Assembly: GCA_025459175.1 (NCBI GenBank)
Contig: JALORC010000080.1
Coordinates: forward strand, 443 to 64,442
Source: Planctomycetota bacterium
GTDB lineage: Bacteria; Planctomycetota; UBA1135; UBA2386
Direction: 5' to 3'
DNA: 64,000 bases
Part shown: positions 1,185-56,388 of the stretch, piece by piece
How the letters are laid out: each line of letters begins with the position of its first letter
Numbering within the stretch: position 1 is the first letter of the stretch
Program-made: the position numbers and the translations under genes
The notes under the pieces: generated by a model
Told to the model about the DNA's origin: nothing
Seen by the model: only the letters and a program-made list of their open reading frames with translations
Database searches by the model: none

Positions 1185-3878
1185 ATGATCCGCCCAGCCA
1201 TCGGTTTCACGTTCTGCCTCGCCGCGTCCTCGCTCGACGCCCAGGCGCCGACCGACTGGTGGGCCTACCGCCCGGTGCAGCGCCCGGAGGTGCCGGCGGT
1301 CCGACGCGCCGATTGGGTCCGCACGCCGGTCGACGCGTTCGTGCTGGCGAAGCTCGAGGCGAACGGACTGCAGCCGGCCCCGGCTGCCGATCGCCATACG
1401 CTGCTGCGACGCATCACCTACGACCTGACCGGCCTGCCGCCGACGCCGGCCGAGATCGCCGCGTTCGTCGCCGACGACGGCGCCGATGCCTACGAACGGG
1501 TCGTCGACCGGTTGTTGGCATCGCCGCAGTACGGCGTCAAGTGGGCGCAGCACTGGCTCGACCTCGTTCGCTACGCCGAGACCGATGGCTACGAGCGCGA
1601 TCGGCCGAAGCCGGCCATCTGGCGCTACCGCGACTGGGTCGTCACGGCGCTGCAGAGCGACCTGCCGTATGCCGAGTTCGTGCACAAGCAGCTCGCTGGT
1701 GACGAACTGCCGGACCCGAAGGTCGCGGACCTGGTCGCCACCGGCTTCCATCGCCTCGGCATCTGGGACGACGAGCCGAGCGACCCGCTGCAGCATCGCT
1801 ACGACGACCTCGACACCATCGCCGACACGACGGCGCGCGCCTTCCTCGCCGTCTCGATGGGCTGTGCGCGCTGCCACGACCACAAGAAGGACCCGCTCAG
1901 CCACCGCGAGTACCACGGCTTCCTCGGCTTCTTCGAGAACCTGAAGCCGTACGACCTGCGCGCGCAGACGGTGCCGGTCGACGGTGCGCGCGCCCGCTTC
2001 GACGCCGCGATCGCCGACTACAGCGGCCGCCGCAGCGGTCTGGTCGCGGCGCTGTCGGCGCGCGGACGCTCGCGCTGGGACGAGCTGAGTGCGGTGCAAC
2101 AGCGTGAACGGCTCGAGCAGGCGCGCGCCGCGGTGCTGGCCAGCTATCCGGGCGATCGCGGCAGTGCGACGCAGTTGCTCGACGAGGTCGGCGACCGCCA
2201 CGGCGCCGTCGACGGCCAGGTGGTGCAGGTGCCGGGGCACCGTGGTCAGGCGCTGCGGTTCGACGGCGACGACGCAGTGGTGTTGCCGCGCCTGGTCGCG
2301 GATTCGTTCAGTGTCGCGTTCTTCGTGCGCAGCGATCAGCGCGGTGCGGGTCGCGACAGCGACCTGCGCTGGTTCACCGGCACCGGTCTCGTCGACGGCG
2401 AGGTGTCCGGCATCACCGCCGACTGGGGCATCGCGTGGCTCGGCGACGGTCGCGTGGTCGCCGGCACCGGCGACCCGGAGACGTTCGTCGGTTCGGGGCC
2501 GGGTCACCACGACGGGCAGTGGCATCACGTGGTGTTCACGCGCGATCAGGCCAATGGGCGCATCGCGCTCTACGTCGATGGTGGGCTCGCCGGCGAGGCC
2601 ACCGGCGGCACGCAGTCGTTGACCGCACCGCCGCGGCTCGTCGTCGGTCGGGCCCAGGTCGGTGGGCCGGGTTTCCGCGGCGATCTCGACGAGCTGCAGT
2701 TCTTCCTTCGGGCGCTGTCGGCGGCCGAGGTGGCGGCGCTGGCGTTGGAGCTGCCCGGCGGCATCGCCTCGGGTGCGGACCTCCAGGGGCAAGCGGAACT
2801 CACCGCGCTCGCGACGCTGCAGCGCCCCGACCTCGACACCGTCGACGTGTTGGCGGTCGCCGAGCACGGGCCCAACGGCCCGGTGCCGGTGGTGCGGCTG
2901 CGCGGCAACGTGCACAGCCAGGGTGCCCAGGTCGCGCTCGGGTTCCCGTCGATGCTCGGTGCGTCGTCGCCGCCAGCACTGCAGCCGACCGCCCACAGCA
3001 GCGGGCGCCGCACCGCGCTGGCGCGTTGGATCGTCGATCCCGCCAACCCGCTCACGTGGCGCGTGCTCGCCAATCGGCTCTGGCAGCACCATTTCGGCCG
3101 CGGCCTCGCGCGTTCGAGCAACGACTTCGGGCGCCTCGGCGACCTGCCGACGCACCCCGAACTGCTCGACTGGCTCGCCTGCGAAGTGCTCGCGCGCGGC
3201 CAGAGCCTGAAGGCGATGCATCGACTGCTGGTGACGTCGAACGCGTACCGGATGGCGTCGGATGCCGAACCGGACGCACTGGCGCGCGATCCGCTCAACG
3301 ACCTGCTGTGGCGGTTCGATCGCCGTCGTCTCACGGCGGAGGAAGTGCGCGACTCGGTGCTGGCGTGCAGCGGCGACCTCAACCTGGAGCTCGGTGGGCC
3401 GAGCGTGTTCCCGCCGATGCCGGCCGAGGTGCTGGCGACCGCGTCGAACCCGGACGCCGCGTGGGGGCGCTCGCCGCCCGAGCAGGCGGCGCGCCGCAGC
3501 CTCTACGTGCACGTGAAGCGCTCGCTGCCGGAGCCGTTGCTGTCGGCGTTCGATCGCGCCGACACCGATGCGAGCTGCCCGGTGCGCTTCGCGACCATCC
3601 AGCCGACGCAGGCCCTGACGCTGCTGAACGGTGAGTTCGCCAACGTGCAGGCCGAGCGCTTCGCGGCGCGGCTCGCGCGCGAGGCGGCCGAGGTGCGGGC
3701 GCGACTCGCACGCGGCCTCGAGCTGGTCACGCAGCGACCTGCGCGCGCGGCGGATCTCGAGCGGCTGCTCGCCCTGTTCGACGAGTTGCGGCGCGACCAC
3801 GGCCGCAGCGAGACCGAGGCCTTGCAGCGCTGCTGCCTGGTGCTGCTCAACTGCAACGAGTTCCTGTTCCTGGATTGA
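1185..3878 (+). CDS. DUF1549 / LamG-like / DUF1553 domain protein (PSD-type, planctomycete-style)
   Basis: 897-aa ORF. N-terminal part ...DAFVLAKLEANGLQPAPAADRHTLLRRITYDLTGLPPTPAEIAAFV...LASPQYGVKWAQHWLDLVRYAETDGYERD fits DUF1549. Central LamG-like segment: HHVVFTRDQANGRIALYVDG...DLDELQFFLRALSAAEV. C-terminal part ...LARWIVDPANPLTWRVLANRLWQHHFGRGL...LNCNEFLFLD fits DUF1553. The opposite-strand 898-aa ORF is an Arg-rich shadow. Confidence 0.9.
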   Translation: MIRPAIGFTFCLAASSLDAQAPTDWWAYRPVQRPEVPAVRRADWVRTPVDAFVLAKLEANGLQPAPAADRHTLLRRITYDLTGLPPTPAEIAAFVADDGADAYERVVDRLLASPQYGVKWAQHWLDLVRYAETDGYERDRPKPAIWRYRDWVVTALQSDLPYAEFVHKQLAGDELPDPKVADLVATGFHRLGIWDDEPSDPLQHRYDDLDTIADTTARAFLAVSMGCARCHDHKKDPLSHREYHGFLGFFENLKPYDLRAQTVPVDGARARFDAAIADYSGRRSGLVAALSARGRSRWDELSAVQQRERLEQARAAVLASYPGDRGSATQLLDEVGDRHGAVDGQVVQVPGHRGQALRFDGDDAVVLPRLVADSFSVAFFVRSDQRGAGRDSDLRWFTGTGLVDGEVSGITADWGIAWLGDGRVVAGTGDPETFVGSGPGHHDGQWHHVVFTRDQANGRIALYVDGGLAGEATGGTQSLTAPPRLVVGRAQVGGPGFRGDLDELQFFLRALSAAEVAALALELPGGIASGADLQGQAELTALATLQRPDLDTVDVLAVAEHGPNGPVPVVRLRGNVHSQGAQVALGFPSMLGASSPPALQPTAHSSGRRTALARWIVDPANPLTWRVLANRLWQHHFGRGLARSSNDFGRLGDLPTHPELLDWLACEVLARGQSLKAMHRLLVTSNAYRMASDAEPDALARDPLNDLLWRFDRRRLTAEEVRDSVLACSGDLNLELGGPSVFPPMPAEVLATASNPDAAWGRSPPEQAARRSLYVHVKRSLPEPLLSAFDRADTDASCPVRFATIQPTQALTLLNGEFANVQAERFAARLAREAAEVRARLARGLELVTQRPARAADLERLLALFDELRRDHGRSETEALQRCCLVLLNCNEFLFLD

Positions 3879-5329
3879 TGCCCATGCAACCGCGCAACAC
3901 GTTCTGCGGTCGAACCCGCCGCGAGTTCCTGGCCCAGGCCGGCGCCGGCTTCCCGGCGCTGGCGCTCACCGATCTGCTGACGCGCGACGGCGTGTTCGGC
4001 GGCGGCGGCGCCGGCGTCGGCGGCCCGCTGCAGCCGAAGGCGCCGCACCACGCGCCGAAGGCGAAGGCCTGCATCTTCCTGTTCATGTACGGCGGTCCGA
4101 GCCAGGTCGACACGTTCGACTACAAGCCGAAGCTGTACGGACTGGACGGCAAGACGATCGACATCGCCACCAAGGGCCGCGGCGGCGCGAAGGGCCAGGG
4201 GCGCGTGGTCGGCCCGAAGTGGAAGTTCCGGCAGTACGGCGAGTGCGGGCACCACGTCAGCGACCTCTTCCCGCACACCGCGCGCTGCGTCGACGACATC
4301 GCGTTCGTGCACAGCATGTACGCGGAGTCGCCGCTGCACGGCTCGGCGATGCTGATGATGAACAGCGGTCGCATCCTGTCCGGCGCGCCGTGCCTCGGTT
4401 CGTGGCTGACCTACGGGCTCGGTACCGAGAACCAGAACCTGCCCGGCTTCGTGGTGATGTTGGACCAGAGCGGCGGCCCGATCTCCGGCGCCAAGAACTG
4501 GAACAGCGGCTACATGCCCGCGGTCTACCAGGGCACCGTGTTGCGCTCGCAGGGCGAGCCGATCCTCGACCTCGCGGTGCCGAGCGGCATGACCGCGCGC
4601 GAACAGCGGCGCCTGCTCGACGCGCTGCGCGAGCAGAACGAAGCGCATCTCGCGATGCGCGCCGAGGACAGCAACCTCGCGGCGCGCATCCAGAGCTACG
4701 AACTCGCCTACCGGATGCAGTCGCATGCGCCCGAGGCGATCGACCTGGCCAGCGAATCGGCGGCCACGCGGCGCCTGTACGGGCTCGACGACCCGCGCAC
4801 CGAGGACTTCGGCCGCAAGTGCCTGCTGGCGCGGCGGCTGGTCGAACGCGGCGTGCGCTTCGTGCAGGTCTACTCGGGCGGCAACCACAACGACCACAAC
4901 TGGGACGCGCACGGCGACCTGGTGCTTAACCACGAGAAGCACGCCGGCGCCACCGACCAGCCGGTTGCGGCGCTGCTGACGGATCTGAAGCAGCGCGGTC
5001 TGCTCGACTCGACGATCGTGGTCTGGGGCGGTGAGTTCGGCCGCCAGCCGACCGCCGAGTACGCCGAGGGCACCGGGCGCGATCACGACTCCGAGGGCTT
5101 CACGATGTGGCTCGCCGGCGGTGGCATCCGCCCCGGCATCAAGGTCGGCGCCACCGACGAACTCGGCTACAAGGCGGTCGAGAAGCCGTTCCACGTCAAG
5201 CATCTGCACGCGACGATCCTGCAGCAGATGGGGCTCGACCCGAATCGCCTCGCGTTCTTCCACGCCGGCCTCGACCAGCGGCTGGTCGGCACCGAAGGGG
5301 CGCAGCCGATCCGCGAACTGATCGCGTGA
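3878..5329 (+). CDS. DUF1501 family protein (sulfatase-like fold) with twin-arginine-type signal
   Basis: Twin-arginine-like leader MPMQPRNTFCGRTRREFLAQAGAGFPALAL. Motifs ...FLFMYGGPSQVDTFDYKP... and ...VVWGGEFGRQP...GRDH... fit DUF1501, the usual partner of DUF1549/DUF1553 genes. Stop/start overlap TGATG at 3876-3880. The track start 3875 is TTG; ATG 3878 is preferred. Confidence 0.9.
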   Translation: MPMQPRNTFCGRTRREFLAQAGAGFPALALTDLLTRDGVFGGGGAGVGGPLQPKAPHHAPKAKACIFLFMYGGPSQVDTFDYKPKLYGLDGKTIDIATKGRGGAKGQGRVVGPKWKFRQYGECGHHVSDLFPHTARCVDDIAFVHSMYAESPLHGSAMLMMNSGRILSGAPCLGSWLTYGLGTENQNLPGFVVMLDQSGGPISGAKNWNSGYMPAVYQGTVLRSQGEPILDLAVPSGMTAREQRRLLDALREQNEAHLAMRAEDSNLAARIQSYELAYRMQSHAPEAIDLASESAATRRLYGLDDPRTEDFGRKCLLARRLVERGVRFVQVYSGGNHNDHNWDAHGDLVLNHEKHAGATDQPVAALLTDLKQRGLLDSTIVVWGGEFGRQPTAEYAEGTGRDHDSEGFTMWLAGGGIRPGIKVGATDELGYKAVEKPFHVKHLHATILQQMGLDPNRLAFFHAGLDQRLVGTEGAQPIRELIA

Positions 5330-5351
5330 GCGTTCGGTTTCGGCACCGCCT

Positions 5352-5615
5352 TCAGTTGCGCGATGGTCGGGGCGGGCTTGCTTCGTCGTCGTCGTCCTGC
5401 GACCCCATGTCCAGGGCGACCAGCGCCGCCAGGTAGAACGCGGTCTGATCGGGGCGCTCGGCCATGAATTCGCGGGCCACCGCGACGAACTCGCGGAAGC
5501 GGATCAGCCCGCCCTCGCCGCGGCCGAGCAGGCGGTTGCCGAAATCGATCGCGTGCGGAGTGGCGAGCCGTCGCAGCGAGGCGCGGGCGAGGGCAGGTGG
5601 GGACGGGTGATGCAT
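5352..5615 (-). CDS. Hypothetical small protein (87 aa), last ORF of the selenoprotein operon
   Basis: The ORF lies 108 nt downstream of the glycosyltransferase on the same strand. The sequence ...HAIDFGNRLLGRGEGGLIRFREFVAVAREFMAERPDQTAFYLAALVALDM... is not shadow-like in composition. No motif recognised and no clear RBS. Confidence 0.3.
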   Translation of the reverse strand: MHHPSPPALARASLRRLATPHAIDFGNRLLGRGEGGLIRFREFVAVAREFMAERPDQTAFYLAALVALDMGSQDDDDEASPPRPSRN

Positions 5616-5723
5616 GGGGCTGTCGCTTGGTCCTTCGCGGCCACACCGGGCCGCAGGACTTAGTGCGCGACCCGGGGCCGGCCGGGCGTGGATTTTCCGT
5701 GGCGAGGCGCGAGCTCCGCGTGG

Positions 5724-6701
5724 TCAGCGAGGCGGCAACACGCCGAGCTCGGTCAGCAGGGCGGCCAGCGCCGCGCGTTCGCGCGCCGGCGCCACCATCG
5801 GCTGCAGCTGCCGCGTGCGTTCGAGCAGCTGCGCGTAGAACCCCGGATCCTCGGCGCTGCGCCGCCACAGGGCCGCCAGGGCCGCGGCATCGCCGGGCGG
5901 GAACCGTCCCGGCCAGTCGGCACCGAGCAGGCCGAGGTTGCCGGGCACCGCAGTGGCGAGCAACGGGGTGCCGGCGGCGATCGCCTCGGAGACGACGTTG
6001 GCGCCGCCTTCGGCCGCGGACGGCACGATGCACAGGTGGCTGCTCGCCAGCAGCCGTCGCGCCGCGGTGCGCGGCAGTTCGCCGAGCCAGCGGGCGCGAG
6101 GATCGGCGGCGACGGCGGCACGCACCGCGGCGGTGGTCGCCGCTTCCAGCGGACTGCCCGCCAGCAGCAGCTCGCAACGCAGCTCGGCCGGCAGCAGGCG
6201 CAGTGCTTCGAGCGCCAGCAGCGGGGCTTTCACCGGGCGCAGGTGCGCCAGCACGCAGGCCCGGCAGCCGGCGGCGCGAGCGCTCCGGAACGCGGTCGCC
6301 GACTGCACGATCGTGCGTGCCTTGGCCCGCAGGAAGCCGGGGATCTGCACGATGGCGTCGGGCTGCAGGGCCACGATGGCACTGGCGCGCTCGAGCGCGG
6401 CCTGCGCCTGCGGGTCCGGCGTGAACTCCGGATAGACGTCGGTGCCGGCCAGCAGCACGACCACGCGCAGGCCTCGCAGCGCGGCCGCGGCGGCCGCCAC
6501 GCTGGCGGCGCTCTTCTGCGCGTGGATCGCGACCAGCAGTTCGCACGGTTCGCCTCGCCACTGTTGCACGAGACGCGGGCGCAAGCCGAGGCTGCGCAGG
6601 TGCGCCGCCCAGCGCAGCGCGGTGATGCGATTGCCATTGCGGCTGCCGCGGGCCGCCGGGGTGACCAGGAGCACGCGCGCGGCCGCGCCGGGCGGACTCA
6701 C
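5724..6701 (-). CDS. GT-B fold glycosyltransferase (family 1/4-like), possibly SenB/TIGR04348-like
   Basis: ORF 5724..6773 is trimmed to GTG 6701, which overlaps the stop of the upstream selenoprotein gene (GTGA). N-terminus: VSPPGAAARVLLVTPAARGSRNGNRITALRWAAHLRSLGLRP...ELLVAIHAQKSA. C-terminal half ...LLLAGSPLE...CIVPSAAEGGANVVSEAIAAGTPLLAT... is typical of GT1/GT4 enzymes. The GNRxTAxRWA N-terminal pattern resembles the TIGR04348/SenB selenosugar-synthase family as I recall it; this is not verified. Confidence 0.8.
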   Translation of the reverse strand: MSPPGAAARVLLVTPAARGSRNGNRITALRWAAHLRSLGLRPRLVQQWRGEPCELLVAIHAQKSAASVAAAAAALRGLRVVVLLAGTDVYPEFTPDPQAQAALERASAIVALQPDAIVQIPGFLRAKARTIVQSATAFRSARAAGCRACVLAHLRPVKAPLLALEALRLLPAELRCELLLAGSPLEAATTAAVRAAVAADPRARWLGELPRTAARRLLASSHLCIVPSAAEGGANVVSEAIAAGTPLLATAVPGNLGLLGADWPGRFPPGDAAALAALWRRSAEDPGFYAQLLERTRQLQPMVAPARERAALAALLTELGVLPPR

Positions 6702-6928
6702 CGTTCCTGCAGTTGGCTCAGGATCTGCTCGGCCTCCGGGAAGCGATCGCCGTCGCGATGTCGCTTGTCCCACAGCAGCCTGCCGTCGACGGTGACGACG
6801 AAGTCCCCGCGGCCACCGGGCTTCTTGTCGACGACGGCGCGCGGATGCACCCGCTGGATCGCGGCGGCCAGACCGGTCGCCTTGGGCAGGTAGTTTCAGA
6901 CCACGCAGTATTCGATCGTCACGCGCAT
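6698..6928 (-). CDS. SelW/Rdx-family selenoprotein (76 aa) with in-frame UGA = selenocysteine at codon 11
   Basis: Not in the ORF track because of the in-frame TGA at 6896-6898. Reverse-strand translation from ATG 6928: MRVTIEYCVV-U(TGA)-NYLPKATGLAAAIQRVHPRAVVDKKPGGRGDFVVTVDGRLLWDKRHRDGDRFPEAEQILSQLQER-stop (6698-6700). It aligns along its full length with the SelW/Rdx pattern: a beta1 strand, then a CxxU/CxxC redox motif, later GxFxVxVxGxLxxxK. Compare mammalian SelW VRVVYCGAUGYKSKY...[20 protein letters not shown]. A SECIS-like hairpin follows the UGA. Confidence 0.8.
6863..6881 (-). promoter_or_regulatory. Candidate bacterial SECIS hairpin
   Basis: Starting 14 nt 3' of the UGA, the mRNA reads GGCG-A-CC[GGUCU]GG-C-CGCC. 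That gives 6 G-C pairs with one A/C mismatch and a 5-nt apical loop beginning GGU. The loop resembles the GGUC-containing apical loop of E. coli fdhF SECIS at a comparable distance from the UGA. Folded by eye only. Confidence 0.5.
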
Positions 6929-6991
6929 GGCGGCGAGTCTACGGCGCGGAACTGGCTGGGACCAACGATCGCCTCGCCGGCGCGCTCGGGG

Positions 6992-7387
6992 TCAGCCTCG
7001 CGGGCGTCGGCCGGCGGCGATCGCCAGCAAAAGCCAGCCGATCAGGAACGCCACCCCGCCGAACGGGGTCACCGCACCGAGCCATCGCAGCCCGGTCCAC
7101 GTCATCGCGTACAACGAGCCGCTGAACAGCAGGATGCCCGCGACGAAGCTCCAGCCGGCCGCGGTCGTGCGGTGGCCCTGGCCGGCCAGCGCGCCGCAGC
7201 CGAGCAACGCCAGCGCGTGGTACATCTGGTAGCGCGCCCCGGTCTCGAACGTCACCAGGGCGGCGGCGTCGTAGTGGGCCTTCATGCCGTGCGCGGCGAA
7301 GGCGCCGAGTCCCACCGCGAGCCCGGCCAGCAGGGCGCCCAGGCGCAGGAACGGGGACCCGGAGCGGGGCGGCTCGATGTCGTGCAT
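6992..7387 (-). CDS. DUF423 family membrane protein (YgdD/TMEM256-like)
   Basis: 131 aa with about four hydrophobic helices. Motifs ...GLGAFAAHGMKAH...ETGARYQMYHALALL...LLFSGSLY... match my recollection of DUF423. Confidence 0.85.
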   Translation of the reverse strand: MHDIEPPRSGSPFLRLGALLAGLAVGLGAFAAHGMKAHYDAAALVTFETGARYQMYHALALLGCGALAGQGHRTTAAGWSFVAGILLFSGSLYAMTWTGLRWLGAVTPFGGVAFLIGWLLLAIAAGRRPRG

Positions 7388-7418
7388 CCGCCCATGCTAC
7401 GGGCCCCCTGGGCTCGGG

Positions 7419-7547
7419 TCAGCGGCAGTGGCGGACCGGCGGTCGGAAGCAGTGGCCGCCGCCGCGGTGGTGGTGGAAGTGGCAGGCGGCGAGGCTGGCA
7501 CCGAGCAGCGCCAGCACGAACCAACGGAACGAACGTCGCATCGTCAT
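7419..7547 (-). CDS. Small His/Cys-rich lipoprotein-like peptide (42 aa)
   Basis: ATG 7547 is preceded by GGAGG 7 nt upstream (reverse strand GGAGGCAATCCCATG). Sequence: MTMRRSFRWFVLALLGASLAAC-HFHHHRGGGHCFRPPVRHCR. It has a signal peptide with a lipobox-like LAAC. The 21-residue mature part carries 6 His and 3 Cys. The track shows it only as the tail of a 110-aa ORF. Confidence 0.5.
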   Translation of the reverse strand: MTMRRSFRWFVLALLGASLAACHFHHHRGGGHCFRPPVRHCR

Positions 7548-7663
7548 GGGATTGCCTCCGGGAAGGCGCGCCACAGCGCGCATCCCCAGCCGCGCGTTGG
7601 TGGCGGCGCCGGAGCATTCTGCCGACTTGGTCCCCGAGGCGGTGGCGGCCGATAACACCGCGC

Positions 7664-9586
7664 ATGCAGTCACTTCCTCGCTCGCGGTCGTTCGGCCTCG
7701 CGGTCTTGCTGGCATCCGCCCCATTGGTCGCGCAGGCGCCCGAGTTGTCACCGGTGACCGAGGCCGTGGCCGGGGTCGTGAACACCCTGCAACTGAAAGG
7801 GGCCGGTCTGGTCGCGGTGCGAGCCGGGGGCGAACTGCATCGCAGCAGCCACGGCAACTTCGACGCCGCGACGCCGCTGCCGATCGCCTCGGCGAGCAAA
7901 TGGCTCGCGGTGGCGGCGATCATGACCTTGGTCGATGCCGAACAGCTCGATCTGGATCAGCCGGTGGCTCGCTACCTGCCGGAGTTCGACCGCGACGACA
8001 AGCGCCGGTTGACCTTGCGGCAGTGCCTGGCGTGCACCGGTGGCGTGCCGGCCCGGTTGCCCGAATCGGTGCGCGGCATGGACATGAAGGCGTTCGTCGC
8101 GGAGGCGGCCGACACCGCGTTGCGCGAACAATCCGGAACGACCTTCCGGTACGGTGGGGTCGGCTTCCAGATCGTCGCCGCGGCCGCGGAGCGCGTGTCC
8201 GGCAAGTCGTGGCACGAGTTGTTCGCGACCGCGATCGCAGCGCCGCTCGGACTCCGCGACACGAGGTTCGGCACCCTGCAGCCGATCGGTGGCGAGGCCG
8301 GCAGTGCGGCGCTGCCGTGGGTCGCGGGGGGTGCTTTGTCCACGCTCGACGACTACGCGCGCTTCCTGCGCATGCTGGTCGGTCGCGGCGAACTCGACGG
8401 CGTGCGGGTGCTGCGCGCGAGCTCGGTCGAGTCGATGTTCCGCGATCAGGTGCCCGCGATGGTCGAGGTGCACGCGGTCGGCTTCGACGCCGACGATGTT
8501 CGCTACGGTCTCGGCACCTGGCTCCAGCGTCTGCCCGATGGCGCGATACGGGTCAGTGATCCAGGCGCGTTCGGCTTCACGCCCTGGATCGACCTGGACC
8601 TCGGCATCGGCGGGGTGTTCGGCGTCGTCGATCGGGCGGCGCGGGTGCTCGATCAGCTGAAGCGTGTGCAGCAGGTGCTGCGCACGACGGTGGCGTCACC
8701 GATGGTCGCCGGCACCGAACGCGAGGTGAAGCTGTCGCACGACGGCCGCGATCGTCGCTACCTGGTCCACGTGCCGCCGCACGACGGCAAGTCCGCGCTG
8801 CCCTTGCTGCTGGTGTTGCACGGTGGTGGCGGCAATGCGGATCAGGTGCGCGAGACCACGGGGCTGGCGACGGCTGGTGTGCGCGCGGGGTTCGTCGTGG
8901 TGTTCGCCGACGGCACCGGTCCGCTGCGGGGCAAGCTGCTGACGTGGAACTCCGGTGGCATCCCGGTCTGGGCCGTGGAGCACGGCGTCGACGACGTCGG
9001 GTTCCTGCGCGCCGTGGTCGCCTCGGTGCAGGGGCAGGTGGCGATCGACCCGCAGCGGGTGTTCGCGTGCGGTCACAGCAACGGCGGCATGATGTGCCAT
9101 CGCCTGGCGCGCGATGCCGGGGACCTGTTCGCCGGCATCGCCGTGGTGTCCGGAGCCATGAACCATCGCAGCAGCGACGCCCAGCAGCCGATCGCGGTGC
9201 TGCTGCTGCACGGCACCGCCGACCAGCACGTGCGCTACGAGGGCGGCGCGCCGACGAAGGCGATCGGCCGCGCCGGGGAGCGCGTCGATGCCTCGGTGCA
9301 GGACGCGATCGACTACTACCTCGATCGCAACGGGCTGCGCACCGAGAAGGTCACCGAGCGGTCGGGCAAGATCCGCATCGACGACTATCGCGAGGCGCGT
9401 GGTGGTGTCGCGTCGGCACCGGTGCGCGTGATCACCATCGAGGGTGCGGGCCACTCGTGGCCGGGCGGCAAGACACCGGTGCGTGCCGTCGCGGACACGC
9501 CGTTCCCGTTCGATGCGTCGGCGGCGATCGTGAAGTTCTTCGCCGAGTTCGCGCCGGTGCGGCCACCGGCCGCCACCCCGCGCTGA
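7664..9586 (+). CDS. Secreted fusion: beta-lactamase/PBP-like serine hydrolase + LpqC/PHB-depolymerase-like esterase
   Basis: The 957-aa ORF is trimmed to ATG 7664 (MQSLPRSRSFGLAVLLASAPLVAQA signal peptide). The N-terminal half contains ASASKW (SxxK). The C-terminal half contains ...RRYLVHVPPHDGKSALPLLLVLHGGGGNADQ..., GHSNGGMM (GxSxG) and LLLHGTADQHV. Confidence 0.85.
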   Translation: MQSLPRSRSFGLAVLLASAPLVAQAPELSPVTEAVAGVVNTLQLKGAGLVAVRAGGELHRSSHGNFDAATPLPIASASKWLAVAAIMTLVDAEQLDLDQPVARYLPEFDRDDKRRLTLRQCLACTGGVPARLPESVRGMDMKAFVAEAADTALREQSGTTFRYGGVGFQIVAAAAERVSGKSWHELFATAIAAPLGLRDTRFGTLQPIGGEAGSAALPWVAGGALSTLDDYARFLRMLVGRGELDGVRVLRASSVESMFRDQVPAMVEVHAVGFDADDVRYGLGTWLQRLPDGAIRVSDPGAFGFTPWIDLDLGIGGVFGVVDRAARVLDQLKRVQQVLRTTVASPMVAGTEREVKLSHDGRDRRYLVHVPPHDGKSALPLLLVLHGGGGNADQVRETTGLATAGVRAGFVVVFADGTGPLRGKLLTWNSGGIPVWAVEHGVDDVGFLRAVVASVQGQVAIDPQRVFACGHSNGGMMCHRLARDAGDLFAGIAVVSGAMNHRSSDAQQPIAVLLLHGTADQHVRYEGGAPTKAIGRAGERVDASVQDAIDYYLDRNGLRTEKVTERSGKIRIDDYREARGGVASAPVRVITIEGAGHSWPGGKTPVRAVADTPFPFDASAAIVKFFAEFAPVRPPAATPR

Positions 9587-12052: not shown

Positions 12053-13717
12053 TTACCAGAACAGTCGCCAGCGCCAGGTGCGTTCCGCGTAGCCAGTGGC
12101 ACTGCGCACGGTGCCGAGTCCATGGCTGCGCAGCAATTCGCGTCGCGCACCGCGCGCCTCGTCGCTGTCCTCGCCCGGCTCGCTCATCGGCAGCGGCGAC
12201 ATGCTCCCGATCATCAACCACCACAGCTCCATCGGCAGTGCCACGAACGCGTCGAGTTCGGCGCGGCCGAGGCCGTGCACACCCGCCGGCAGGAAGCGCT
12301 GCAGCGGCGCGAACTCGTTCGCCTCGGCGTTGCTCGCCGCGGTCGTTGCGGTCGCCGAAGGGCCCTGCTTGCACTGCAGCAACGCCTTGGTCAGCAGCGC
12401 CTCGGCATCGTCGCCGCCGGCGATCACGCAGTGGCCGTGGCCGACCGCGAGCCACAGGTCGTAGCCGAACATGTTGCCGTAGCGATGCAGGGCGACGCCG
12501 TCCACGGTTTCGGTCGCCTCGCGCGACAGCAGCGGCTTGCTGCTGGCGATCAGTGTGTCGAGCCCGCGAGCGAACGCCTTCTCGTCGCCGAGCTGCCACA
12601 CCAGCGTCCAGGACACGTCGTCGGGATCCTCGAGGTCGGTGATCGGTTCGATCGCCAGCGCCACCGCGGTCGTCATGTGCGCGAGCAGATCAGCGTCCGG
12701 ATCGATGCCGGTCTCGCGCTTCATCTCGGCCTGCAGATCGGCCGTGGTGTCGCCCATCCACGATGCGACCACCGGCAACAGCGACGTGTACAGCGCGCGC
12801 AGGTCGAAGTGCCCGACCCGCCAACTGCCGCGCGGCCCGGTCAACCGACGCAGTTCCGGCACCGCCGTGGCCGCGGGACAGAGCGCCGCGAACATGCCGC
12901 GTGCGTCGCTGGTGAAGGCCTGCGCCAGTTCGGCCAGCACGTGCGGTCCGGCGGTGGCGATCGACATCTGCATCACCCCCAGGCTGTCGAAGCCGAGCGC
13001 GCGCAGTTCCTGCCAGTCGTTCCCGTCCTCGCCGGCCGCGGCCATCCGGAGGATGGTCGGCAGGTCGATCGACAACCGCAGCGCCGGAGTGTTCGGTGCC
13101 GGCACCTTGGCCGGACCGGCCAGCGCGCGCGCCGCGGTCAGCGTCGCGGCGAGCCGTTCGGCGCTGCCGGCACACACCAGCAAGCTGCTGCCGCTGGCGA
13201 ACGGCGCCGTCACCACGCTGTCGCCCTGGCTCAGCAGCGCGACCTTGGTGCCGTCGAGGTCGCGTTCGCCCCATTCACCGGGCAGCGCTTGTCGCTGTAC
13301 CGCGGTGAGGTCGGCGGCCAACGCCGCGAGGTCGGTGCGACCGTCGCCGTCGAGCACCAGCGCCATCGACAACACACCTTGGCGGTCGAGCGGGCCGGCG
13401 CTGCCGTCGAACCAGACCGCCAGTTGCACCCGGCCCTGGTAACCGAGCAGGCGGGCGCGAGCGGCCTCGTACTCGGCTTCGTCGCCGAACAACTGCTGCC
13501 AGTAGCCGAGCAGCGGCAGCACCTGCGGCTGCCACAGGCCCTGGCCCTGTTCGCTGGCGAGCAGGCTGCCGAGGTTGGTCGGCCCCAGTCGCGAGCGCCA
13601 GCCGTCGGGGCCGACGGTGTCGAGCAGCAGGTGCGGCGCCGCGGGCGGCGTCGCGGTCTGCGCCGGCAGGGCCAGCGCGGACGCGATCAGGGTGATGGCG
13701 AGCGAGAACGTTCTCAT
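12053..13717 (-). CDS. Hypothetical secreted protein (554 aa)
   Basis: ATG 13717 overlaps the stop of the upstream MFS gene (ATGA at 13714-13717). MRTFSLAITLIASALALPAQ is a signal peptide. Balanced composition. No family recognised. Confidence 0.75.
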   Translation of the reverse strand: MRTFSLAITLIASALALPAQTATPPAAPHLLLDTVGPDGWRSRLGPTNLGSLLASEQGQGLWQPQVLPLLGYWQQLFGDEAEYEAARARLLGYQGRVQLAVWFDGSAGPLDRQGVLSMALVLDGDGRTDLAALAADLTAVQRQALPGEWGERDLDGTKVALLSQGDSVVTAPFASGSSLLVCAGSAERLAATLTAARALAGPAKVPAPNTPALRLSIDLPTILRMAAAGEDGNDWQELRALGFDSLGVMQMSIATAGPHVLAELAQAFTSDARGMFAALCPAATAVPELRRLTGPRGSWRVGHFDLRALYTSLLPVVASWMGDTTADLQAEMKRETGIDPDADLLAHMTTAVALAIEPITDLEDPDDVSWTLVWQLGDEKAFARGLDTLIASSKPLLSREATETVDGVALHRYGNMFGYDLWLAVGHGHCVIAGGDDAEALLTKALLQCKQGPSATATTAASNAEANEFAPLQRFLPAGVHGLGRAELDAFVALPMELWWLMIGSMSPLPMSEPGEDSDEARGARRELLRSHGLGTVRSATGYAERTWRWRLFW

Positions 13718-14940
13718 GGCTTCTTGGTCGATGGTGTCGGCGGCAGTCCGCGCAGGGTCCAGTGCGCGACCAGCAGGCTGAGCACTGCCAACACGGCGCT
13801 GACGAAGTAGACGGCGCCGGCCGGCACACCGGCGTTCTGCGGGTCGATCGACCACGCGAACACGAACGCACCGAGCAACGGGCCGAGGATGTTGGCGAGG
13901 CTCTGCGCGCTGGTCAGGCCACCCTGCACGGCGCCCTGCTGGTCCGGCCGCACGCTGCGCGTGATCAGTGACTGGCAGGCCGGCATCGCGATGCCGCCGA
14001 GCGACGCGAACGCGACGGTGGCGTAGATCATCCAACCGGCGGTCGCGGTCGCGTAGCCGAGGTAGGCGAGCACGCCGATGCCGAGCCCGATCAGCACCGA
14101 GCGCCGTTCGCCGAGCTTCGGGATGATGCGCCGCGCGAGACCGCCTTGCACCAAGGCGGCGCCGAGGCCGACCGCGAACAGCGACAGGCCGACATCGCGC
14201 GGACCCCAGCCGTAGCGATGGCCGGTGTAGAGCACCCAGGTCGAGTGCAGCGCGAACTGCGCGACGTTGACCAGGAACAGCGCCCCGGCGAGTCGGCGCG
14301 CCAGCGGGTACTGGCCGAGCACCCCGAGCGCGGCCAGCGGGTTGCCGATCGCGCGCGCGCTGCGGCGTTCCGGCGGCAGCGACTCCGGCAGCACGAACAC
14401 GCCGTAGAGGCCGTTGCACAGCGCCATCGCGCCGGCGGCGTAGAACGGGTAGTGGATGTCGATGTCGCCGAGGATGCCGCCGAGCAACGGGCCGAGCACG
14501 AAGCCGATGCCGAACGCGGCGCCGACGATGCCGAAGCCGGCGGCGCGCTTCTCGGGCGTCGTCACGTCGGCGATGTAGGCGCTGGCGGCGGTGATGCTGG
14601 CGCCGGAGACGCCGTTCAGCGCTCGCGTCACGAACAGCCACGGCACCGTCGGCACCAGCGCCATCGCGATGTAGTCGAGGCCCGAGCCGAACATCGACAG
14701 CAGCAGCACCGGTCGGCGGCCGAAGCGGTCCGACAGCGCGCCCAGCACCGGCGCGAACAGGAACTGCATCGCCGCGTAGCAGGCGGTCAGCCAGCCGACG
14801 ATCGGCGCCGCGCTCTGTTCGGTGCCGCCCTGCAGCTGCATGACCAGCTTCGGCGCCACCGGGATGATCAGGCCGAAGCCGAGCACGTCCAGCAGGAGGA
14901 CGAAGAAGACGAAGCGCAGGGCGGGTTGCTTTTGGGTCAC
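13714..14940 (-). CDS. MFS transporter, TetA/TCR-like drug:H+ antiporter
   Basis: GTG 14940 (VTQKQPALRFVFFVLLLDVLGFG...). 408 aa with a 12-TM pattern. MFS motif ...LGALSDRFGRRPVLL... Overall resemblance to tetracycline-efflux-type MFS. Confidence 0.85.
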   Translation of the reverse strand: MTQKQPALRFVFFVLLLDVLGFGLIIPVAPKLVMQLQGGTEQSAAPIVGWLTACYAAMQFLFAPVLGALSDRFGRRPVLLLSMFGSGLDYIAMALVPTVPWLFVTRALNGVSGASITAASAYIADVTTPEKRAAGFGIVGAAFGIGFVLGPLLGGILGDIDIHYPFYAAGAMALCNGLYGVFVLPESLPPERRSARAIGNPLAALGVLGQYPLARRLAGALFLVNVAQFALHSTWVLYTGHRYGWGPRDVGLSLFAVGLGAALVQGGLARRIIPKLGERRSVLIGLGIGVLAYLGYATATAGWMIYATVAFASLGGIAMPACQSLITRSVRPDQQGAVQGGLTSAQSLANILGPLLGAFVFAWSIDPQNAGVPAGAVYFVSAVLAVLSLLVAHWTLRGLPPTPSTKKP

Positions 14941-15022
14941 GTTGGCGGTGCGGCGGGGGATTCGGATCGTGCCCGTTCGCCGCCTCGCGCGCCAACGATG
15001 CGCGGCTACAACACCGATCGCG

Positions 15023-16153
15023 ATGGCAGAACCGTTCAAGAACCTGATCGATCGCCGGCTGCTGGCGACCGCCGGCGCGCAGCTGCAGCGGGCGTGGGCG
15101 AAGTTCCCGTGTGCCGAGTTCGTGCGGCTGGCGAGCGATGGCCTCGACCGGCTGGAGCTGAAGGCGCGCGTGCTGCAGGTCGCGGCGGCGCTCGAGGCGA
15201 CGCTGCCGGCCGACTTCGATCGCGCCGCCGCCGTGCTCGAGCGTTCGTTGGCGAAGGCCACCGACAGCGCCGAGCTGAAGGGGCTGGTCGCCGGCGAGCA
15301 CGGGCTCGCCGGATGGATCATCTGGCCGCTCGGTGAGTTCGTCGCACGGCGCGGGCTGCCGCATCCCGAGCGGGCGCTCACCTGCCTGCGCGAGCTGACG
15401 CAGCGGTTGACGGCGGAGTTCGCGATCCGGCCGTTCTTGATCGAGCACGAAGAACTGACGCTGCGCACCTTGCGGCAGTGGTGCAGCGACCCGAGTCCGC
15501 ACGTGCGGCGGCTGTGCAGCGAGGGTTCGCGGCCGCGGCTGCCGTGGGGGCTGCGGCTGCAGCGGTTCTGCCAGGACCCTTCGCCGACCCTGCCGATCCT
15601 CGCGGCGCTGCAGGACGATCCGAGCGACTACGTGCGCCGCAGCGTCGCCAACCATCTGAACGACATCGCCAAGGATCATCCGCAGGTGATCGCGGGGTGG
15701 CTGCGCGAACACCTGCCCGCTGCCGGTCCGCAGCGGCGCGCCTTGCTGAAGCACGCGTGCCGCACGTTGATCAAGCAGGGCGATCGCGCGGTGCTGGCGG
15801 CGTGGGGGCTCGATCGGCCGCTGCGTGGTGCGGCCGAGTTGGCGATCGCGCCGCAGCGGGTGCAGGTCGGCGGCGCGGTCGAGCTCGCGGTGACGCTGCG
15901 GTCGGCGGCGAAGCAGGCGCAGAAGCTGGTCGTCGACTACGTCGTGCACCGCGTGCGCAAGGACGGCAGCACGGCGCCGAAGGTGTGGAAGGGATGGACG
16001 CTGGAACTCGGCGCCGGCGAGACGCGCGAACTGGTGCGGCGGCACTCGCTGCAGAAGGTCACCACGCGCACCGACCATCCGGGCCGGCACGCGGTCGAGC
16101 TGCTGGTGAACGGTGCAGTGGTCGCGCGCGGTGCGTTCGAGTTGCGAGGCTGA
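15023..16153 (+). CDS. DNA alkylation repair protein (AlkD/AlkC-like HEAT-repeat glycosylase family)
   Basis: Starts MAEPFKNLID... Signature segments ...SDPSPHVRRLCSEGSRPRLPWG... and ...DPSDYVRRSVANHLNDIAKDHP... There is an extra beta-rich C-terminal domain of about 110 aa. Confidence 0.85.
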   Translation: MAEPFKNLIDRRLLATAGAQLQRAWAKFPCAEFVRLASDGLDRLELKARVLQVAAALEATLPADFDRAAAVLERSLAKATDSAELKGLVAGEHGLAGWIIWPLGEFVARRGLPHPERALTCLRELTQRLTAEFAIRPFLIEHEELTLRTLRQWCSDPSPHVRRLCSEGSRPRLPWGLRLQRFCQDPSPTLPILAALQDDPSDYVRRSVANHLNDIAKDHPQVIAGWLREHLPAAGPQRRALLKHACRTLIKQGDRAVLAAWGLDRPLRGAAELAIAPQRVQVGGAVELAVTLRSAAKQAQKLVVDYVVHRVRKDGSTAPKVWKGWTLELGAGETRELVRRHSLQKVTTRTDHPGRHAVELLVNGAVVARGAFELRG

Positions 16154-55002: not shown

Positions 55003-55434
55003 ATGGAAACGCTGGTATTGCCCTGTCCGTCGTGTGCGGCGTTGAACCGCCTGCCCAAAGCCCGCCTCGGTGACGGCCCGAAGTGCTCGTCGTGCCAGCA
55101 CGCCTTGCTCGGTGGCCCGGTCGCACTCGACGCCGCGTCGTTCGACCGCGTCGTCACCAGGACCACGCTTCCCGTCGTCGTCGACTTCTGGGCCGGCTGG
55201 TGCGGCCCGTGCCGCCAGATGGCGCCGCACTTCGCCGCGGCGGCGCAGGAACTCGCCGGGCGGTTCGTGTTCGCGAAGGTCGACACCGAGGCCGCGGCCG
55301 AGGTCGCCGCGCGCTTCGCGATCCAGTCGATCCCGACGCTGGTGCTGCTGCAGCAGGGGCAGGAGGTCCGGCGTCAGAGCGGGGCGATGCCGAAGGCCGC
55401 GCTGGTGCAGTGGCTCGGCGGCGTCACGCGGTGA
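55003..55434 (+). CDS. trxC: Thioredoxin 2 (zinc-finger N-terminal extension + WCGPC thioredoxin domain)
   Basis: METLVLPCPSCAALNRLP...GPKCSSCQHAL provides two CxxC motifs. Then ...VVVDFWAGWCGPCRQMAP... and ...IQSIPTLVLL... Confidence 0.9.
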   Translation: METLVLPCPSCAALNRLPKARLGDGPKCSSCQHALLGGPVALDAASFDRVVTRTTLPVVVDFWAGWCGPCRQMAPHFAAAAQELAGRFVFAKVDTEAAAEVAARFAIQSIPTLVLLQQGQEVRRQSGAMPKAALVQWLGGVTR

Positions 55435-56206
55435 CAGGGACCTCGTGCACGCTGATTCGCCCGTGCCGCAACCAGCCCTCGGTCAGCAGCCAGGTGCGCG
55501 CGTCGGTCACCGGTCGCACGATGGCGTCGATGCCGTGCACGGTGATGCGTTCGCGAAAGCCTGCGAACCACGGCGCCGACGTGAACGTGTCGATCGCCTG
55601 CGGCACGCTGACTTCGCGGCCTTCGGCAGCGTGCTTCTTCCCGTTGCCGAACACGTAGCGCAGCGCGTTGCGCACCTCGCGCGGCGACTTGAGGATGTGG
55701 TCGTGGTAGCGGTCGGCGAACACGCTGCCGCGGCGTGACCAGAGCTTGTTGAGTGCTCGCGCGATGCGGATCAGCAGGCCCTGCAGGCCGCGGCTGAGCG
55801 CGTCGCGACCTTCGGCTTCGCAGATCAGGTGCAGGTGGTCGTTCAGGACCGCGTAGTGGCAGAGGCGGAACTGGCCGCTGAGGTTGCGGGCGCAGCCGGC
55901 CGCGAACGCCGCGCGCAGCGCGTCGTAAGCGGGCTTGCTGCGCAGACGGGGCAAGCCGCCGCGCAGCTTCAGCGTGACGTGCACCGGGAAACGCTTCGCG
56001 AGCGGTGCGCGCTGGCGGTGCTCGACGCCGGGGCGCCCGGGGACCTTCGGTTTGCGACCAGCACCGGGACGGGCACCGCCGTGCCCGGGGCGGAACGGCA
56101 GCAATGGCGCGGTGGGCTTGCCCTTGGCTCGGCTCCTGACGCCGGACTTCGAGTCGGTGGCCTGGCGCCGCTTTGCTTCTGATCGGTGCTCGGAGATCTT
56201 CGCCAT
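55424..56206 (-). mobile_element. Y1 HUH transposase, IS200-like / REP-associated tyrosine transposase (RAYT)-like
   Basis: ATG 56206; 260 aa. Basic N-terminus with ...GGARPGAGRKPKVPGRPG...PVHVTLKL... HUH motif: LNDHLHLICE. Catalytic Tyr region: VRNALRYVFGNGKKH. The 3' end overlaps the trxC 3' end by 11 nt (convergent). Confidence 0.8.
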
Positions 56207-56388
56207 CTTGATAGGGCGGAAATATAGGTTCGGCCTGCTGAACATGCAAGCAAGCGACTCGAGATCCCGCGGCGGAGGTGACATGGCGGGAGATGCGAGA
56301 GCCGACCTGAGACAGGGCCGTTGCGCGCCGCTCGGTCACCGGTCGGGGACGCGACGATGTCGCGAGACCGCCGACCCGGTTGTTTGCG

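Follow-up and report, generated by a model that had tools for sequence, protein, structure and literature searches.

The minus strand of a 64,000-nt stretch of Planctomycetota DNA (assembly GCA_025459175.1, contig JALORC010000080.1; the whole 64-kb stretch is called the window below) raises the question of whether an in-frame TGA at 6898-6896 ends a reading frame of ten codons or is read as selenocysteine (Sec) inside a longer gene of the Rdx/SelW-like family. A first-pass annotation made from the letters alone had proposed the selenoprotein, and this interpretation is supported by a family profile that matches across the TGA, by TGA at the same codon in 40 of 40 loci, by a hairpin that covaries among orthologs, and by the truncated form of the public gene calls. 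With a probability of about 0.9, judged from sequence data, the locus is a functional Rdx/SelW-like selenoprotein gene with a Cys8-Val-Val-Sec11 motif and a Sec insertion sequence (SECIS) within its coding region. The features of the gene on the window are these:

6698..6928, minus strand: complete coding sequence, ending in TGA 6700-6698, of the predicted Rdx/SelW-like selenoprotein of 76 residues (Sec is residue 11), based on translation and family matches.
6896..6898, minus strand: predicted Sec codon, the in-frame TGA at codon 11, which is TGA in 40/40 loci and aligns with the second Cys of CxxC in 3DEX and 2FA8.
6896..6907, minus strand: C-V-V-U redox motif, codons 8-11, with TGC at codon 8 and TGA at codon 11, each in 23/23 tabulated sequences.
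6863..6881, minus strand: hairpin of the bacterial SECIS type, with stem 6881-6875 pairing with 6869-6863 (seven positions, one A.C mismatch) and apical loop 6874-6870 GGUCU.

Translation of the minus strand from ATG 6928 gives MRVTIEYCVV, the TGA, and then NYLPKATGLAAAIQRVHPRAVVDKKPGGRGDFVVTVDGRLLWDKRHRDGDRFPEAEQILSQLQER, with 65 more sense codons past the internal TGA up to the stop TGA at 6700-6698. The frame and the peptide given in the first-pass annotation (ATG 6928, TGA 6896-6898, stop 6698) are confirmed by this translation. The window has G+C content of 71%, and the G+C content at third codon positions (GC3) of its real genes is about 0.85-0.95; GC3 on either side of the internal TGA is of the coding type. 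When all six frames of the 64 kb were scanned for open reading frames (ORFs) interrupted by TGA and with coding-type GC3 on both sides, the Rdx gene alone was found. As the sole outcome of the scan, it is a specific feature and not a product of chance in GC-rich DNA. A stricter earlier version of the same scan gave zero ORFs, missing even the Rdx gene. A gene on the opposite strand across 6698-6928 was considered and rejected, as the plus-strand ORF of 957 aa at 6713-9586 is genuine only from about 7664, where a beta-lactamase/S9 gene starts. The codons that flank the UGA are biased in composition. The preceding codon (6899-6901) ends in T in 19 of 23 sequences, and GTT is unusual at such GC3. 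The following codon (6893-6895) has the form [A/G/T]xC, with the final C in all 23 sequences and A as the first base in 20 of them. This bias may represent a local context constraint on Sec insertion.

The family searches were done with the 76-residue protein in which U was replaced by C. The Pfam model of Rdx, PF10262, matched residues 2-74 of 76 with 61.2 bits (cutoff 22.6, E=1e-16), and the NCBIfam model TIGR02174 (CXXU_selWTH) matched residues 3-74 with 51.9 bits (cutoff 34.2). Both models span the TGA, in agreement with the earlier claim that the two sides of the codon belong to one SelW/Rdx domain. In phmmer, the solved Rdx structures 3DEX (6e-9), 2FA8, 2OKA, 2OBK, and 2OJL were matched, and also human MIEN1. 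The position of U11 corresponds in the alignment to the second Cys of CxxC in 3DEX and 2FA8, and a Cys is thus present at the homologous site in the family. An AlphaFold2 model was built for the ortholog P0001, which is 68% identical, and not for the window protein itself; its mean predicted local distance difference test (pLDDT) value is 72.9. The order of elements in this model is beta1 (2-6), CxxU (8-11), alpha1 (11-27), beta2, beta3, beta4, and alpha2. The 23 best Foldseek matches of the model in PDB are all Rdx, SelW, or MIEN1 proteins, with template modelling (TM) scores of 0.64-0.77, and mouse SelW (2NPB) is among them. The protein is a member of the Rdx (SelW/SelT/SelH) family with the thioredoxin-like Rdx fold.

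A protein search gave 26 close relatives. In scans of one genome per species, 22 loci were found, nearly all labelled as Planctomycetota metagenome-assembled genomes (MAGs), and JGI metagenome scans added 18 loci (17 with the codon included). TGA is present at codon 11 in 22/22 genome loci, in locus L027, and in 17/17 metagenome loci, which makes 40/40, down to about 51% protein identity. No TGC, TGT, TGG, TAA, or TAG at codon 11 and no frame-breaking indel was found in the 40 loci, and the protein is conserved on both sides of the TGA, so that conservation continues 3' of this codon as a selenoprotein gene had been expected to show. In every locus the ATG is followed by nine codons, the TGA, and the pattern [N/S/D]Y[L/Q/E/R]P. 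The ATG is kept in all orthologs, several of which carry in-frame stops shortly upstream of it, and these stops fix the start. The ratio of nonsynonymous to synonymous differences per site (pN/pS; Nei-Gojobori, 31 sequences) is 0.38 for codons 2-10 (pS 0.41) and 0.57 for codons 23-58 (pS 0.49). The ratio before the TGA indicates that the ten upstream codons are translated and selected as protein. A second clade of Rdx genes with TGA (L012, L013, L014, and L018; e.g., L013 3537-8805) has two Band_7/SPFH genes upstream, and a MarR gene and an RluA-type pseudouridine synthase gene downstream.

The hairpin GGCG-A-CC[GGUCU]GG-C-CGCC begins 14 nt past the UGA. RNAfold recovers it at 6881..6863, where it had been placed in the first-pass annotation. 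The bacterial SECIS (bSECIS) consensus has an apical loop of 3-9 nt on a stem of 4-16 bp, a distance from UGA to loop of 16-37 nt, and a minimum free energy of <= -7.5 kcal/mol (PMC13188914). A G lies within the first two positions of the bSECIS loop, which is mostly N1-G-[G/U]-N-N2 with N1 pairing N2 (PMC13188914). The window hairpin agrees with this model in all respects, with the loop GGUCU, a stem of seven positions of which six are paired, a spacing of 21 nt, and -7.7 kcal/mol. The energies of the ortholog hairpins are between -7.2 and -15.3 kcal/mol.

In an ungapped alignment of the TGA and the 47 nt that follow it, columns 18-24 pair with columns 30-36 (window 6881-6875 with 6869-6863). 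Among 32 distinct orthologs, 93.3% of cells are paired, versus 28-62% in registers shifted by 1-3 columns along the 3' arm. Covariation scored 0.234, which none of 500 shuffles reached (0.095 in the shuffled data), and three pairs change on both sides. Columns 21 and 33 are both synonymous wobble positions of Ala codons, and their pair is intact in all 32 sequences (28 GC, three AU, one GU); L038, with GCA...GCT, is an example. Across the orthologs the loop is [A/G]-G-U-[C/U]-U, with G26 and U27 invariant. The third-position entropy H3 is about 0 in codons 17-21, versus 1.0-1.6 in the invariant PGGRG motif, and pS drops by half in the hairpin codons relative to the remaining gene. All 23 tabulated sequences have AGT or GGT as codon 19, and thus G-T, which is rare at this GC3 (about 0.9), is kept while the residue alternates between Ser and Gly. 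Such frozen or covarying synonymous sites show that it is the RNA, not the peptide, that is selected here. The fit to bacterial SECIS expectations that had been claimed for the hairpin therefore stands, both in the agreement with the bSECIS consensus and in the covariation across orthologs. The 32 distinct hairpins with clear synonymous covariation are a possible training or benchmark set for bacterial SECIS and selenoprotein predictors in high-GC genomes.

In the proposed mechanism, the ribosome would arrive at UGA 6898-6896, and the hairpin at 6881-6863, with G-U in its apical loop, would recruit the SelB.GTP.Sec-tRNA(Sec) complex. Sec would then be inserted in place of termination, and translation would run on to the stop at 6700-6698. 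To judge from the family, the product would most likely act as a small thiol-dependent oxidoreductase that alternates between the selenol/thiol and the selenenylsulfide forms. The frame, the family and fold, the conserved TGA with selection on either side, and the conserved, covarying hairpin are shown by the data; Sec insertion itself, a sel machinery in this genome, and a redox function are what we infer.

Public annotation presents the gene in a shortened form. Among the 26 close relatives, 25 are N-terminally truncated products of 41-64 residues with differing starts, and the NCBI entries are named "Rdx family protein". P0004 and P0007 (NCBI MAG annotations) are such proteins of 63-64 aa, with M at the codon of Leu14 and with beta1 and CxxU lost. 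The sole full-length entry is P0001 (L027 10001-10231), in which W is printed at position 11 where the DNA has TGA, and the terminal TGA is printed as W too. The W in P0001 is a database artefact which could pass for a Trp variant. At the window locus, which is also represented by contigs of JGI metagenome 3300037462 that do not reach past the window, the JGI call is a truncated ORF of 50 aa from GTG 6850 (L001 10538-10690). The statement that standard annotation misses the gene was therefore correct as to the truncation of the public calls, but the gene is not wholly absent from them, as the JGI ORF shows. The truncation of Planctomycetota Rdx proteins in public databases is clade-wide (40 loci here, either named as Rdx family proteins or listed as ORFs of 41-64 aa with no name) and removes the catalytic CxxU. 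A corrected annotation adds a selenoprotein and flags the genomes as likely Sec decoders.

Several results weigh against a functional selenoprotein gene at this locus. Genes for SelA, SelB, SelD, and tRNA-Sec were sought in the 64-kb window and in about 0.4 Mb of sequence flanking the related loci, and none turned up; the search consisted of NCBIfam scans of GC3-selected window ORFs, tRNA scans, and tblastn with Escherichia coli SelD, SelA, and SelB against the window and all loci. The window hairpin is of the weakest kind seen, as it has the A.C mismatch and its -7.7 kcal/mol is narrowly past the threshold of -7.5 kcal/mol. A single-sequence fold of 61 nt is no better than shuffles (z=+0.83), and because this fold is unremarkable, the significance of the hairpin comes from the comparative data alone. 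Runs of Ala GCC/GCG codons could be a partial source of its palindromic character. NF041051 (SelTWH_Campy), the curated selenoprotein equivalog of NCBI, gave 77.3 bits, under its cutoff of 88, and this failed cutoff may be the reason why the NCBI pipeline leaves the Sec codon unrescued. As for the machinery, complete Sec systems are present in some Planctomycetes (PMC4807772). The adjoining gene encodes a SenB-type Se-glycosyltransferase, described below, and SenB uses selenophosphate (PMC10891094), so that SelD is very probably present in the organism. The doubt left in the selenoprotein interpretation concerns the sel machinery and the residue that is inserted.

A selenoprotein could also be made here with the true SECIS elsewhere, the hairpin at 6881-6863 arising only as a side effect of the conserved Ala-rich peptide A-x-[SG]-L-A-A-A. 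The Ala GCC/GCG codons in both arms are indeed partly self-complementary, four of the seven pairs show no changes on both sides, and an Rfam search of 5300-7500 gave chance matches only, with no bacterial SECIS model matched to confirm the element. This explanation is nevertheless improbable. Wobble sites in the arms and the loop are frozen or covarying, whereas equally conserved residues elsewhere vary freely at the wobble position; xGT at codon 19, rare at GC3 of about 0.9, is retained across the Ser/Gly replacement; G-C was changed to A-U by two synonymous changes in three lineages; and the bSECIS model is matched exactly in both position and loop pattern (PMC13188914). Marginally less probable again is recoding of the SECIS/SelB type in which a tRNA(Sec)-like tRNA is charged with cysteine or another amino acid and a non-Sec residue is inserted. 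Natural Sec-to-Cys recoding systems exist. The conserved TGA, the hairpin, and the two-sided coding show recoding but not the identity of the inserted residue, and selA was found in none of the sequences searched (window and fetched loci). Sec is, however, the default for such an architecture in a family that is a classic CxxU selenoprotein family (PMC1088965), the neighbouring SenB implies selenophosphate synthesis in the organism, and drift to TGC or TGT would be expected in some lineages if the product contained Cys, while it is seen in 0/40.

That the TGA is a true stop is very unlikely. In this case only the downstream ORF would be made (50 aa from GTG 6850; 63 aa in the NCBI ortholog calls), or the locus would be a decaying pseudogene. 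In the ten codons before the TGA, purifying selection is no weaker than in any other part of the gene (pN/pS 0.38). These codons provide strand beta1 and the catalytic Cys, and the truncated product would be without the redox motif. The ATG and the TGA are invariant in 40 loci down to about 51% identity. The downstream start codons are unconserved, and gene callers choose at least six different ones. A true stop would match the output of these gene callers and would agree with the weak hairpin of the window copy. The least probable of all is a genome-wide reassignment of TGA (genetic code 4 or 25), with the codon read as Trp or Gly, for which the W printed at position 11 in the JGI product of P0001 could be cited. 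The terminal TGA of P0001 is likewise printed as W, which marks a translation artefact; TGA is the stop of 20 of the 22 window genes with family matches, the Rdx gene included; and no other coding ORF with in-frame TGA was found in the 64 kb. Global reassignment is effectively refuted by TGA as a normal stop and by the artefact in P0001.

Next to the selenoprotein gene, three genes on the same strand need description:

6992..7387, minus strand: gene of a DUF423 small membrane protein (PF04241, E=2e-27), 63 nt upstream of the Rdx ATG; it precedes Rdx in most clade-1 loci.
5724..6701, minus strand: gene of a SenB-type Se-glycosyltransferase, 325 aa, downstream of Rdx, with GTG start at 6701-6699 and the same start in the JGI call; TIGR04348.
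5352..5615, minus strand: p87, a conserved ORF of 87 aa with no Cys, downstream of SenB; found by tblastn in many loci.

The stop codon of Rdx shares bases with the SenB start in the sequence GTGA, and no terminator-like site breaks the minus strand across this region. Rdx is probably co-transcribed with the upstream DUF423 gene and the downstream SenB gene. At least 11 distinct related lineages have the gene order beta-lactamase/S9, DUF423, Rdx, SenB, p87. The SenB homolog scored 302.2 bits with TIGR04348, which is borderline at a cutoff of 300, and matched SenB of Variovorax paradoxus (8FBX) over its full length with E=7e-53. It keeps N20, T23, H58, D86, R155, V157, K158, E231, and E239 (positions counted in the 8FBX alignment), which are all the catalytic and substrate residues highlighted in the paper on the SenB structure (PMC10891094). 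No senA (EgtB-like) and no senC/selD was found in the window or in 10-kb flanks of L001, L027, and L031, so the gene is an orphan SenB. The preprint on the discovery of SenB lists 2,353 TIGR04348 genes, only 827 of them in senABC clusters, and an Rdx neighbour is unmentioned there. The p87 product had no Pfam or NCBIfam match. Its length is 82-104 aa among the loci, and most clade-1 loci have it after Rdx or SenB; in loci lacking SenB it still adjoins Rdx; it was found in L003, L005, L007, L009, L010, L011, L016, L021, L024, L027, L030, L031, and L038.

Other genes are found around Rdx and SenB in the relatives. A gene of a class-I S-adenosylmethionine (SAM)-dependent methyltransferase (Methyltransf_11/25), not present at this position in the window, lies repeatedly beside Rdx or SenB, and in five loci it lies between them on the opposite strand. 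Its sites are L003 6296-7273(-), L005/L006/L010 about 6210-7234(-), L015 1441-2415(-), L024 2216-3034(-), and L027 11686-12825(+). One lineage has tRNA-Arg(GCG) between Rdx and SenB on the opposite strand (L019 6483-6564, L032/L033 10483-10564, and L034 9707-9788). A pair of PSCyt2/PSD1 (DUF1549/DUF1553) and DUF1501 genes, typical of Planctomycetota, is located at 1185-5329 (+) of the window, and several relatives keep it in synteny with the Rdx cluster.

The arrangement suggests, tentatively, that the Sec-containing Rdx, instead of serving as an antioxidant by itself, could be a dedicated part of a selenosugar module DUF423-Rdx(Sec)-SenB-p87, which is without SenA and SenC and often has a class-I SAM methyltransferase nearby. 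In such a module, the Rdx protein might keep a selenosugar or its precursor reduced, or might hand over selenium. The GTGA overlap, the position of Rdx and SenB close together on the same strand in at least 11 lineages, and the intact catalytic residues of SenB speak for it. Against it, unrelated flanking genes are syntenic too, and with synteny of the whole region the adjacency of Rdx and SenB may merely reflect relatedness of the lineages. SenB is also missing between Rdx and p87 in L011, L016, L020, L030, and L038/39, and the second Rdx clade stands in the unrelated context of Band_7, MarR, and pseudouridine synthase genes. On balance the module is doubtful, and the link between Rdx and SenB is a lead and not a finding. 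If it were true, a SelW-like protein of bacteria would for the first time have an assigned function, and Planctomycetota would have a new selenometabolite pathway. That Rdx recurs beside an orphan SenB can be tested as a clue to what bacterial SelW-like proteins do, and this adjacency is the sole element of the locus that might yield novelty.

Two further observations concern distant parts of the window. A TrxC-type thioredoxin gene with an N-terminal zinc ribbon, at 55003-55434 (+), convergently overlaps the end of a gene resembling REP-associated tyrosine transposases (43.6 bits, cutoff 80), at 55424-56284 (-). The gene at 13714-15468 (-) encodes a major facilitator superfamily (MFS) transporter similar to Tet(A)/(B)/(C), whose 316.8 bits fall well short of the cutoff (475). 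The pump is of a generic MFS kind, and the gene is not called a tetracycline-resistance gene.

Among known systems, the solved Rdx proteins of the Cys type are SAV_2001 (3DEX), Atu0228 (2FA8), PA (2OKA), Pseudomonas fluorescens (2OBK), Bordetella parapertussis (2OJL), and Vibrio cholerae (2P0G). They share with the Planctomycetota protein the fold (TM 0.64-0.77), the sequence (E to 6e-9), and the aligned IEYC..C.[WY]LP.A. They differ from it by CxxC (e.g., CTQC) in place of CVVU and by a length of about 100 aa with N- or C-terminal extensions, and are only 20-37% identical to it. Mammalian selenoprotein W (2NPB) and MIEN1 (2LJK) also have the Rdx fold and the same position of CxxU/CxxC, with identity of about 23-26%, but the eukaryotic SECIS is in the 3' untranslated region and is structurally unrelated. 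The E. coli fdhF-type SECIS and the bSECIS model share with the present element a coding-region hairpin 3' of the UGA, a small G-U loop, and spacing of 16-37 nt (PMC13188914). Compared with the fdhF element, however, its sequence is unrelated, no bulged U is evident, and the window stem has the A.C mismatch. The senABC selenoneine cluster has the full-length SenB homolog in common with this locus, while senA and senC/selD were not found within about 10 kb here.

The closest known group is that of bacterial SelW-like/Rdx selenoproteins, an established family with few Cys forms (PMC1088965, PMC1794560). The first-pass annotation regarded the family as not new, and rightly, as SelW-like proteins already ranked first in abundance among bacterial selenoprotein families in the 2005 Sargasso Sea survey (PMC1088965). 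Shared with this group are the length of about 75-85 aa, CxxU between beta1 and alpha1 of a thioredoxin-like fold, a coding-region SECIS after the Sec-UGA with G in a small apical loop, scarcity of Cys forms among close relatives, and a presumed redox function. With bacterial SelW-like selenoproteins that carry a coding-region SECIS on record since 2005, the gene is an ordinary member of a known bacterial family and the biological gain is incremental. With NF041051 (Campylobacter type), NCBI's one curated selenoprotein equivalog for the family, the Planctomycetota protein scores below the cutoff, and the Planctomycetota subfamily is distinct among bacterial SelW-like proteins by its C-V-V-U motif and its KPGGRGDFVV signature.

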